Shown here one piece after another: positions 13,547 through 51,438 of a stretch of 64,000 bases of DNA; the stretch's first letter is position 1; each line of letters starts with the position of its first letter. Position numbers and translations under genes: made by a program. Below the pieces are notes generated by a model. The model was not told the DNA's origin, searched no databases, and worked only from the letters and a program-made list of their open reading frames with translations. The stretch is from NCBI GenBank assembly GCA_948607205.1, contig CAPERS010000007.1, forward strand, positions 833-64,832, written 5' to 3'. Source of the stretch: an uncultured Eubacteriales bacterium (lineage in GTDB: Bacteria > Bacillota > Clostridia > Christensenellales > UBA1242).

Positions 13547-14023
13547 TTAGTTCAAACTATTCAAAACCTCTTCTGCATCACCTTCAATCAGAAATAAATC
13601 ATCAACTCTTTTAAATTTTATTCTCTCATACCACGCATATGGCATATTATTTTCACCTAAATAAGTTGCACCACTCAATTTTGTCACGTCATATTTTTCT
13701 TTTGCAAGCAAAATTAAATTTTGCAAAAGTGATTTTGCAATTCCTTTCTTTCGATACTTTTTATCAACTGATATTTCCTCAATCATAAGCCAATTTCCGT
13801 CTGCCCAAGGCTTAATGAAGGAGTAAGTGAACCCGATCCCCCCCGTTTCATTTTTAGCAACTAAAAATAGGTCAGGATTTAAATTAAAGAAAAACTCACA
13901 AGTTTTTATGGCGCTTTCTTACGTCCAGCCTTCATTAAGCTCATTATTGTTATAAATATCCATTAAAAGTTTAGCGCAAAATTGCAAATCACTTCTTTCG
14001 GCTTGTGATATAACACAATTCAT
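13547..14023 (-). pseudogene. GNAT N-acetyltransferase interrupted by one in-frame TAA (codon 35)
   Basis: ATG at 14023 behind GGAGG. The frame is continuous for 159 codons down to the stop at 13547, except for a TAA at 13921-13919. The downstream part carries the GNAT motif KKYRKKGIAKSLL. The track reports only the last 79 codons. Confidence 0.75.
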
Positions 14024-15617: not shown

Positions 15618-16343
15618 CTAAAATTCTCTGTAACTTATTAACTGAACTCCCTCATAAACACCTAACGCAAACGCCTCTTTAAGAACGGCCAGTTCCTTAT
15701 CTCTGTCAAGATAACTTGTCACTGTTTTTGTGTAGTCATCTATGTAGCCGGGATGCGTCACAATCTCAAAAATTTTATCGGTTGACTTATAGGCTTCAAC
15801 AAAACTTTTCAGCGTTTCAATGTTCACATTCTCAATGGTGAAATTATGAAAGAGATAGTCAGGCGATTTTAAATCACTATCATTTTTATCTTTTCGAATG
15901 GGCAAATCAAACTTCTTACAAATATCATTAATTGCGCGCCTAATTTCAGAATTTTCTCGCAAATGGTGGTGAGTGTCAATGTGATCAACTTTGATTTGAC
16001 CTCCGCTTTCTCTTGTAACAAATTCAAACTGCGCCATGATTTCATTGTAAGCATCTTGATAAGTCAGTTTTTCATTGTTTATTTGAGATTTGTTATAATA
16101 AAACACGCCATTCTCATCTGTTAGATTTTCATTCTTTAAAATTGGTTTGCCAACAGTCAAATTCACATGCAAGCCAATGCAGTTGATATTATTTTTGACC
16201 GCCTCTTCAAGCGCATATTTCGCGTATGGCATATTTGCCATTATCGAGGTGCTTGTTATCCCCCCCCCGATTATTCCGCTTATTATGCCGTCAGTGATAC
16301 TTTTGCTTAGACCAAAATCGTCAGCGTTTATGATGAGTTTCAA
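15618..16343 (-). CDS. ChbG/HpnK (YdjC) family carbohydrate deacetylase
   Basis: MKLIINADDFGLS N-terminus and the DHIDTHHHL metal-binding motif. The coding sequence contains a G9 run (complement of 16260-16268) encoding GGG. Confidence 0.85.
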   Translation of the reverse strand: MKLIINADDFGLSKSITDGIISGIIGGGITSTSIMANMPYAKYALEEAVKNNINCIGLHVNLTVGKPILKNENLTDENGVFYYNKSQINNEKLTYQDAYNEIMAQFEFVTRESGGQIKVDHIDTHHHLRENSEIRRAINDICKKFDLPIRKDKNDSDLKSPDYLFHNFTIENVNIETLKSFVEAYKSTDKIFEIVTHPGYIDDYTKTVTSYLDRDKELAVLKEAFALGVYEGVQLISYREF

Positions 16344-17160: not shown

Positions 17161-17242
17161 TGGTGCGGGCGGTGGGACTTGAACCCACACTCTTTCGAAC
17201 ACGCCCCTTAAACGTGCGCGTCTGCCATTCCGCCACGCCCGC
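17161..17242 (-). tRNA. tRNA-Leu (type II, encoded CCA); anticodon loop reads UUAAGGG, giving anticodon AAG
   Basis: Minus strand: GCGGGCG-UG-GCGGAAUGGCAGACGC-G-CACGU-UUAAGGG-GCGUG-UUCGAAAGAGU-GUGGG-UUCAAGU-CCCAC-CGCCCGC-ACCA. The acceptor, anticodon and T stems all pair, and the variable arm is 11 nt. Confidence 0.85.
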
Positions 17243-17325: not shown

Positions 17326-17354
17326 ATTATATTAAATCTATACATATTTGTCAA
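17326..17354 (-). promoter_or_regulatory. sigma-A consensus promoter upstream of tRNA-Leu
   Basis: Minus strand reads TTGACA (17354-17349), a 17-nt spacer, then TATAAT (17331-17326), about 80 nt upstream of the mature tRNA 5' end. Confidence 0.6.
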
Positions 17355-17453
17355 GCAAAATTGACAATAAAATTGCAAAATTTTAATAATTTTCTATAAA
17401 TTTTCAGACAATTAACTTTTGTTTAATTATTTTAAATAATTTTAAAATTCATA

Positions 17454-17483
17454 TTGACAAATTCCCCCCCCGATATGTATAAT
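17454..17483 (+). promoter_or_regulatory. sigma-A promoter with a C8 homopolymer in the spacer
   Basis: TTGACA (17454-17459), an 18-nt spacer AATTCCCCCCCCGATATG (C8 at 17464-17471), then TATAAT (17478-17483). AAAGGAG RBS and the ATG at 17502 follow. Confidence 0.55.
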
Positions 17484-17501
17484 TAACTTAAAGGAGAAAA
17501 C

Positions 17502-18578
17502 ATGCAATCAATTTTAAAAGAAAAAGAATTATTAAAAAATAAACAAGTAAAGTTGCCAAAGCAAAGTTTCTTAAGAAATATTCTTGACAACGGAACAAAA
17601 AAGCTTTTTGACCTTTATGGGAATTGGGATTCAGCTTGCTTTGATAGACCCAAAAGACACACAGTAAGTAATATGCCATGTCATCTTCGCAATAATGCAT
17701 GGATGGCTCGCCTTATGCAGTTTGAACTTTTGAAGAATAAGAAATTCGTGCCATATTTGGCAGTTCTTAACTATGTTAAAAATTCAGACTATTTTGAAAA
17801 GCAACGCCATGAATATGAACTTCGAATTGTTAAAAAGCAAATTGAGTTTATGAACGAATGCAAAGACATTTATGGAAGGGCTTTCTATTTTCCAGACAAA
17901 GATATTTTTGGCAAGAAGAAAAAAGGCATAATAACACAAAGTTGGAAAGAATGGGACACAGTAAAGGAAATTTCAGAAGAACAATGGATAAAAGAAATTA
18001 ATGACCCTAAAATAAGTGATGTAGATAAATTTAATAATTATAAATGTCGTCATTTTTTCGGCATAACGTATTTTTATAAAATAACACATCACACAACCAA
18101 AAAATCAGACCCCGTTCGCAACTGGAATTGGGAAGCACAAGAATGCTATCACCTGCATGGAATTAACATCAAAGACGCTGACCTCAACTTCAGAAATGTT
18201 GTTGTGAACATGCTCACAATGATAGGCATGGACGAAGAAGTTGTTAATGAAGGTCTTGAAAAATATTCAGACCTGTGGCGAGATAAATATATGGAAATCG
18301 CTTTTGATAAGGAAACAACTTTTAAAGTAAACGAAAATGAAGATATGATTTCTTTGGGCAAACTTCACAAAATGTGGAAAGATGTTAGACTTTTTGAATA
18401 TTATCAAAATCATAAAGAATGGGTCGACAAATATGGAAAAGTAAGCGACGAAATGGTTATGCCAAAAGAAGAATATTTAACTATGAAAAAAATAGTGAAT
18501 GAGCAAGCACAGTTGCGCAAAGATAACGAAAAAATCGAGAAAAAAAGTGATTTCTTTTCAGAACTTTTAACTGACTAA
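17502..18578 (+). CDS. hypothetical protein (358 aa), no recognisable family
   Basis: Strong promoter and RBS and an uninterrupted ORF. Lys/Glu/Trp/Tyr-rich soluble protein. Plus-strand singleton between tRNA-Leu and clpX. Confidence 0.7.
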   Translation: MQSILKEKELLKNKQVKLPKQSFLRNILDNGTKKLFDLYGNWDSACFDRPKRHTVSNMPCHLRNNAWMARLMQFELLKNKKFVPYLAVLNYVKNSDYFEKQRHEYELRIVKKQIEFMNECKDIYGRAFYFPDKDIFGKKKKGIITQSWKEWDTVKEISEEQWIKEINDPKISDVDKFNNYKCRHFFGITYFYKITHHTTKKSDPVRNWNWEAQECYHLHGINIKDADLNFRNVVVNMLTMIGMDEEVVNEGLEKYSDLWRDKYMEIAFDKETTFKVNENEDMISLGKLHKMWKDVRLFEYYQNHKEWVDKYGKVSDEMVMPKEEYLTMKKIVNEQAQLRKDNEKIEKKSDFFSELLTD

Positions 18579-50487: not shown

Positions 50488-50634
50488 ACTCTTTATCCGT
50501 TAAAAAGTGCTTAAAGCACACAGCATTATGCTGATTTTTTAATAAAATATGTTATGTTAATTTTTCTATCTCAAAGTTATACTCTTTATCCGTTAAAAAG
50601 TGCTTAAAGCACAAAAAGGTGCCGATTAAGCACC
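50488..50634. repeat. direct repeat copy A (downstream flank of the two-gene cassette), containing two 33-bp units
   Basis: 50499-50617 is identical to 51303-51421 by manual alignment. The 33-bp unit ACTCTTTATCCGTTAAAAAGTGCTTAAAGCACA occurs at 50488-50520 and 50581-50613. Hairpins GTGCTTAAAGCAC, CAGCATTATGCTG and GGTGCCGATTAAGCACC are present. Confidence 0.85.
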
Positions 50635-50711: not shown

Positions 50712-50906
50712 TTAGTTATCGCATCCGCACATATCGTGACAGCCACACACCTCTACCATATTACCATTTTCATTGTAATAGAAATATCCATTAACACTCA
50801 AAGACATATTTTCTGCTGGTCGAACTATTTCAACCCCTTTTTCTTTTGTTTCTTGGTTTTCTTCTTTATTTGCGCCTTTCAAAATTGACAAATCTTTTTC
50901 TGTCAT
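50712..50906 (-). CDS. small Cys-rich protein (64 aa) ending in VCGCHDMCGCDN
   Basis: AGGAGG RBS 6 nt upstream of the ATG. Followed by a GGTGC...GCACC hairpin and a T-run. No family recognised. Confidence 0.6.
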   Translation of the reverse strand: MTEKDLSILKGANKEENQETKEKGVEIVRPAENMSLSVNGYFYYNENGNMVEVCGCHDMCGCDN

Positions 50907-50927
50907 ACGTTACCTCCTAAAAATATA

Positions 50928-51239
50928 TTAGCCTAAATTTATCTCTTCATCTTTACTGTTGTTATTGCCGTGATTGATATGGTTTACAAGTTTTTCCGCT
51001 TCATCAAATTCTCTACTGCTTTTAAGCAACTTTTCAGAATATTTTTCCACCTTTTTGCTTGCTCTTTTAAGCATTTTTTTAGCCTTTTTTACTTCGTCAT
51101 CACAGTAGTAATCGGAATAATCGTCATAACCAAAATTGTCGAGTTTCGCTGACTCAGGAAAATTGTCAGAAGAATTATCAAACCCCTCCTGATATTCTTT
51201 ATATACTTGTAACATTTTTTCTTCGATTTCTTGACTCAT
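50928..51239 (-). CDS. hypothetical protein (103 aa; acidic Tyr/Asp-rich N-terminal half, basic helical C-terminal half)
   Basis: Start at ATG 51239, behind AGGAGGG. The track's TTG 51284 is actually the TTGACA -35 box. Confidence 0.6.
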   Translation of the reverse strand: MSQEIEEKMLQVYKEYQEGFDNSSDNFPESAKLDNFGYDDYSDYYCDDEVKKAKKMLKRASKKVEKYSEKLLKSSREFDEAEKLVNHINHGNNNSKDEEINLG

Positions 51240-51258: not shown

Positions 51259-51284
51259 ATTATACACGGGGGGGATTTTGTCAA
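51259..51284 (-). promoter_or_regulatory. promoter-like TTGACA/TATAAT pair with a C7 tract and only a 14-nt spacer
   Basis: Minus strand reads TTGACA (51284-51279), AAATCCCCCCCGTG (C7 is the complement of 51268-51274), then TATAAT (51264-51259), 19 nt before the ATG. Confidence 0.4.
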
Positions 51285-51302: not shown

Positions 51303-51438
51303 GTTAAAAAGTGCTTAAAGCACACAGCATTATGCTGATTTTTTAATAAAATATGTTATGTTAATTTTTCTATCTCAAAGTTATACTCTTTATCCGTTAA
51401 AAAGTGCTTAAAGCACAAAAAAGGTGCTTATTAAGCAC
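51303..51438. repeat. direct repeat copy B (upstream flank of the cassette); also carries the yunB terminator hairpins
   Basis: 51303-51421 is identical to 50499-50617. There is then a 1-nt A-run difference, followed by the related hairpin GGTGCTTATTAAGCAC. The first 33-bp unit is truncated (only its last 22 nt, starting at GTTAAAAAG, remain). Confidence 0.85.

Follow-up and report, generated by a model that had tools for sequence, protein, structure and literature searches.

A length-variable poly-C tract in a promoter spacer suggests slippage-controlled expression of a 358-residue protein gene in an uncultured gut Clostridia bacterium

The window analysed here is a 64,000-nucleotide stretch of DNA from an uncultured Eubacteriales bacterium whose genome assembly comprises 1.09 Mb in 28 contigs at 35.7% GC. 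Upstream of a gene for a 358-residue protein it carries a promoter whose spacer contains a run of eight C nucleotides (site 1, Table 1). This promoter had been described as combining perfect −35 and −10 hexamers with an 18-nt spacer and a C8 run, a description that the sequence confirms and for which a promoter consensus scan returned a 12/12 match. The spacer AATTCCCCCCCCGATATG can be written AATT-CCCCCCCC-GATATG. TATAAT is separated by 18 nt from the ATG of the 358-residue protein gene, with the Shine-Dalgarno sequence in between, and site 1 is probably the promoter used for this gene. A promoter-like site without a tract lies 93 nt 5′ of site 1 and could be a source of tract-independent transcription. 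An Rfam search of the region returned the tRNA only, with no other known RNA element.

Table 1 Features of the two tract-bearing promoters and of other G/C tracts in the window
Feature	Position	Strand	Remark
GNAT acetyltransferase gene	13547–14023	−	
G7 tract in GNAT gene	13838–13844	−	in frame (..ETGGIGF..)
ydjC-like gene	15618–16343	−	
G9 tract in ydjC-like gene	16260–16268	−	codons 26–28; C9 on + strand
tRNA-Leu(AAG)	17161–17242		
Perfect promoter TTGACA-17-TATAAT	17326–17354	−	divergent, facing tRNA-Leu(AAG)
Tract-less promoter-like site TTGACA-18-AATAAT	17361–17390	+	11/12 in promoter scan
Site 1, −35 hexamer TTGACA	17454–17459	+	12/12 promoter scan
Site 1, 18-nt spacer	17460–17477	+	
Site 1, C8 homopolymer	17464–17471	+	C9 in two otherwise identical assemblies
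Site 1, −10 hexamer TATAAT	17478–17483	+	12/12 promoter scan
Shine-Dalgarno AAGGAG	17491–17496	+	predicted leader only ~12 nt
358-residue protein gene	17502–18578	+	downstream of site 1 promoter
Direct repeat (~136 bp), first copy	50499–50633		
Two small genes behind site 2 promoter	50712–51239	−	103 aa (51239–50928), 64 aa (50906–50712)
Site 2 promoter TTGACA-AAAT-C7-GTG-TATAAT	51259–51284	−	14-nt spacer; same design as site 1
Site 2, −10 hexamer TATAAT	51264–51259	−	
Site 2, C7 tract	51268–51274	−	
Site 2, −35 hexamer TTGACA	51284–51279	−	
Direct repeat (~136 bp), second copy	51303–51438		

The 358-residue product is predicted to be cytoplasmic, as inspection by eye revealed neither a signal peptide nor a membrane segment. 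Its sequence gave only a sub-threshold Med31 match in Pfam and no match among PHROGs, PADLOC or PDB sequences. The gene had been called an orphan, which proved too strong, because a profile search recovered roughly 70 uncharacterised relatives of about 300 residues from uncultured Clostridia. The protein is a diverged member of this family, in which W42, C46, C60, R102 and W292, among others, are invariant, and it carries an extra lineage-specific insert of about 100 residues relative to the other members. H61, R63 and H103 also count among the conserved positions. An AlphaFold2 model is mostly helical (pLDDT 76.5, pTM 0.67) and matched no PDB fold at E ≤ 0.001. The dN/dS values of 0.25–0.44 reveal purifying selection and indicate that the gene is functional but fast-evolving.

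Searches of six further species of the genus did not recover the gene. In the five genus species whose tRNA-Leu–clpX interval was inspected, this slot contains either different genes or none. The gene neighbourhood of one homologue was uninformative on function. A tie between the tract and the gene family was considered and rejected, given that homologues in other genera lack any G/C run. The ordinary, tract-less promoters of these homologues are a point that we count against a switch, and they indicate that any switch at site 1 is a recent, lineage-specific addition. In a sister strain (ERZ14864678 NODE_48, positions 1–1770), similarity to the window breaks off precisely at the tRNA-Leu(AAG) 3′ end (window position ~17161), and a gene for a 537-residue large serine recombinase lies at this boundary; the break in similarity together with the recombinase suggests an element integrated at the tRNA.

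Independent assemblies were found by exact-protein look-ups. As the proposal of a slipping tract had anticipated, strains that are otherwise identical differ in tract length at both promoters, a comparison drawn throughout from assembly consensus sequences, several with low coverage. Four independent assemblies represent the window lineage at site 1. The tract is C8 in the window genome and in GCA_948586605.1, and C9 in GCA_948664835.1 and in the Logan assembly of ERR4096669. These comparisons contain no substitutions over 7,077, 4,174 and 2,265 nt, and the tract is the sole indel. Furthermore, none of the 17 A/T runs of at least 7 nt in the 13 kb compared varies, and the three assemblies of the window lineage that cover the coding C9 tract of ydjC agree on its length.

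Three assemblies of a sister lineage (97% nucleotide identity) carry AAT-C9 at site 1, in which a T has changed to C and the spacer is still 18 nt long. In two assemblies of a lineage at greater distance (82% protein identity, dS ~0.43), C9 lies within a 16-nt spacer, and the tract is thus unbroken in lineages whose copies of the gene have a dS of ~0.43. Site 1 alleles therefore have spacers of 18 and 19 nt, or 16 nt in the diverged lineage, and never 17 nt. The predicted-optimal C7 allele was not seen, the window lineage showing C8 and C9 only. A pattern scan of metagenomes for orthologous promoters yielded 21 matches, all of them to unrelated promoters.

A second promoter-like site had been put forward as having the same layout. 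A promoter with a poly-C tract does exist at this position (site 2), but it lies on the minus strand and its spacer is 14 nt rather than 18, with a tract of C7. It is followed by AGGAGGG and then by the ATG (51239) of the first of two small genes. Terminator-like hairpins lie 5′ of the promoter, and the gene pair is flanked by direct repeats rich in GTGCTTTAAGCAC terminator-like hairpins. The 64-residue product has a Cys-rich C-terminal motif, VCGCHDMCGCDN, and may be either a small peptide that binds metal or the precursor of a modified peptide; a search for a family match found none.

Among 14 assemblies compared at site 2, C7 occurs in 3 (the window genome and two others), C8 in 4 and C9 in 7. 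Ten contigs of the sister lineage, each from a different sample, divide into four with C8 and six with C9, with 500-nt flanks that are identical in the nine having enough upstream sequence. An A8 run 10 nt upstream of site 2 is kept in all ten. Because the flanks and A runs are invariant while the tracts vary, the length polymorphism is confined to G/C tracts. The spacers of 14, 15 and 16 nt, along with hairpins that would shield the genes from upstream read-through, make site 2 look nearer to a true OFF/ON series.

The original prediction held that a C8 run is unexpected in an AT-rich genome, and genome-wide counts agree. G/C runs of four, five and six bases number 719, 74 and 6, respectively, a roughly ten-fold drop per extra base, after which the counts rise to a second peak at nine (4 runs of seven, 6 of eight, 17 of nine and 4 of ten). 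There are consequently 31 runs of at least 7 (mode 9) in the whole genome as against only 6 runs of six. A bimodal run-length distribution of this kind usually marks contingency tracts under selection, and the near absence of six-base runs beside plentiful nine-base ones points to selection on length.

These tracts are concentrated at promoters. Between hexamers that score at least 10/12 lie 19 of the 37 G/C runs of at least 6, a recurrence at ~19 promoter-like sites that upholds the earlier view of the tract as a design rather than a chance occurrence. Perfect TTGACA-N14–19-TATAAT sites number 62, and 8 of them have a G/C run of at least 6 in the spacer; two further perfect tract-bearing promoters with 20-nt spacers bring the perfect promoters with runs to 10 in all. 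A 17-nt spacer is present in 37 of the 54 tract-less perfect promoters but in only one of the 8 tract-bearing ones (Fisher p = 0.004), whose spacers, with those of the two further sites, are spread over 14–20 nt. The preference of tract-less promoters for 17 nt implies that the sigma factor has the usual optimum. Several other tracts fall within the first 30 codons of genes. About 30 such tracts, site 1 among them, are present in the genome, most of them in promoters and a few near coding 5′ ends, and the genome displays the excess of long repeats, concentrated in promoters and gene 5′ ends, by which a phasome is recognized.

Two classes of tract-bearing promoter can be distinguished. Class 1, with the form cTTGACAAAT-Cn-G...TATAAT, precedes unrelated genes and includes both sites in the window. 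Class 2, with the form TTGACnn-Gn-ATTTTGAGGTATAAT and about 45 nt of conserved upstream sequence, precedes four or five paralogous 1,100-residue surface proteins. We rejected the idea that class 1 promoters are copies of a mobile cassette, as they share no similarity beyond cTTGACAAAT-Cn-G and the genes downstream are unrelated.

Tracts within or next to coding regions have features of their own. The G9 tract of the ydjC-like gene is in frame (GGG GGG GGG, reading ...IIGGGIT...) and is a candidate for intragenic frameshift phase variation. Other coding tracts that encode GGG-I are present in genes for an SDR protein, a Nudix protein and a 364-residue protein. An internal TAA stop interrupts the GNAT acetyltransferase gene 27 codons 5′ of its G7 tract. 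In two genomes of the same genus, some G8 runs directly precede a start codon (AAAAGGGGGGGGAACGATG, TTTTAGGGGGGGGACTATG), where the run acts as a ribosome-binding site, so that tract length there may tune translation rather than transcription.

Hexamer spacing governs promoter activity. We consider it likely that the C8 run at site 1 is a hypermutable simple-sequence repeat in the spacer of a sigma-A promoter, through which slippage controls expression of the 358-residue protein gene. Specifically, slipped-strand mispairing at replication would add or remove one C, and the hexamer spacing would shift to 17 nt with C7 (predicted to be strongest), 18 nt with C8 (reduced) or 19 nt with C9 (weak). 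A population would then carry heritable, reversible sub-lines that differ in the expression level of the gene. Spacing presumably alters transcription in this organism, and switching within one clone would probably occur at a high rate.

The original proposal of promoter-spacer phase variation is strengthened by the length polymorphism and by the excess of runs, but a strict ON/OFF form of it fits less well than graded modulation. The alleles at site 1, with spacers that are never 17 nt, make volume control likelier than a clean ON/OFF switch. Likewise, because both hexamers are perfect and a tract-less site lies upstream, graded modulation is expected at site 1. We count against any switch that the perfect −10 box and the upstream site could sustain transcription at any tract length, and that the target is a cytoplasmic protein, whereas contingency loci typically encode surface or modification functions. 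A further point against a switch is that MutS and MutL are both encoded, so that slippage gains nothing from a loss of mismatch repair, which was rejected as a cause of the instability; their presence places the organism closer to repair-proficient Neisseria and Haemophilus than to Campylobacter.

The most serious alternative, although an improbable one, is that the tract is a genuine hot spot of mutation that serves no regulatory purpose; its length would drift neutrally, and the perfect −10 box or the upstream promoter would suffice for transcription. A neutral run should become interrupted or lost, yet the site 1 tract is unbroken at a dS of ~0.43. Neutral drift would be compatible with the 11/12 score of the upstream site, with the presence of sub-optimal spacers only (16, 18 and 19 nt) and with a cytoplasmic product that has no known function, but it does not account for the same placement at 10 perfect promoters and ~19 promoter-like sites, nor for a run-length distribution in which six is almost absent and nine is common.

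Errors of sequencing or assembly at a static G/C homopolymer are a very unlikely source of the length differences: homopolymers are error-prone and several contigs have only 1.3–6× coverage, but the same kind of difference is found in contigs at 13.6×, A/T runs of 7–8 nt in the same contigs do not vary, the coding ydjC C9 tract is the same in all window-lineage assemblies that cover it, and the alleles recur across MAGs from NCBI, ENA and Logan.

The sequences that flank the tracts raise one further reading, to which we give very little credence, in which the C run and its conserved flanks (AAAT-Cn-GAT) form a protein-binding or DNA-structure element (an operator, or an i-motif or G4-like structure) that regulates independently of length. 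When oriented as G runs, 19 of the 31 long tracts are followed by ATTT, compared with 5 of the 74 five-base runs, and GGGGGGGGATTT occurs 18 times in this genome but 0–1 times in each of 120 relatives. These flanks are, however, largely explained by the classes cTTGACAAAT-Cn and paralogous TTGACnn-Gn-ATTTTGAGGTATAAT, no candidate binding protein was found, and a length-sensitive binding site would still be a switch. As a signal separate from these classes, the Gn-ATTT flank was likewise set aside, although the classes do not explain all of the coding and non-promoter cases. Species of the same genus have C-Gn-AAT(T) in place of this flank.

Slippage of a poly-G or poly-C tract in a promoter spacer has reportedly been described for porA by van der Ende in 1995 and for opc by Sarkari in 1994. 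The original reports on slippage at these two genes are in the reference list of PMC5084427. Like site 1, the opc (poly-C), porA (poly-G) and fetA (poly-C) promoters of Neisseria meningitidis have an uninterrupted G/C homopolymer between or overlapping the −35 and −10 elements. One-base slippage in these promoters alters spacing and grades expression, a behaviour that is proposed here for site 1. The site 1 tract is uninterrupted and falls within the length at which tracts of the porA and opc type can slip (7–8 or more G/C), and both sites in the window show the length polymorphism between near-identical genomes that marks this type. A mismatch-repair-proficient host with many such loci is also common to the two systems. 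In contrast, the host here is an uncultured, spore-forming, ~1-Mb gut Clostridia commensal whereas N. meningitidis is a Gram-negative pathogen, the hexamers at site 1 differ in matching the consensus perfectly, the tract is shorter (8–9 as against 9–17) and the target is a cytoplasmic rather than an outer-membrane protein.

Homopolymer length is also tied to transcription level at the poly-G promoters of tpr and tp0126 in Treponema pallidum and at the poly-A promoter spacers of vlp in Mycoplasma hyorhinis. These systems resemble the present genome in placing promoter homopolymers before several paralogous genes in a small genome. Their promoters control surface antigens, to which only class 2, with its 1,100-residue surface paralogues, corresponds here, and not the 358-residue protein gene.

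Promoter slippage switches belong to the textbook biology of a few pathogens, and to our knowledge descriptions of them from commensal Firmicutes are scarce. A literature search found no description of them for this lineage. The mechanism itself is a textbook one, of which site 1 is a probable further case, in gut Clostridia. Comparable sequences are widespread: of 201 genomes in the family, 163 contain G8 or C8 runs, and many MAGs of uncultured Clostridia and of Christensenella-like bacteria carry the pattern TTGACAAA..C7+..TATAAT, as do Mucispirillum, Fretibacterium, Chloroflexi, Patescibacteria and Campylobacter.

Site 1 adds one more well-supported case of a promoter slippage switch and indicates that such switches are not limited to surface antigens. 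When genomes are annotated or strains compared, one-base indels at such tracts should be taken as biology, not assembly error. A broader view can be offered only tentatively, and we regard it as possible but somewhat doubtful: gut Clostridia that form spores, have small genomes and are proficient in mismatch repair may operate a large homopolymer phasome of ~30 loci per Mb. Besides surface proteins it would include fast-evolving accessory genes for cytoplasmic proteins, located in variable slots next to tRNAs, of which the 358-residue protein gene is an example, and most promoters would be set at sub-optimal spacings, leaving each gene expressed in rare cells only. Were this true, the 358-residue protein family could have a conditionally costly function, for example in interactions with phages or competitors, that is kept under stochastic control.
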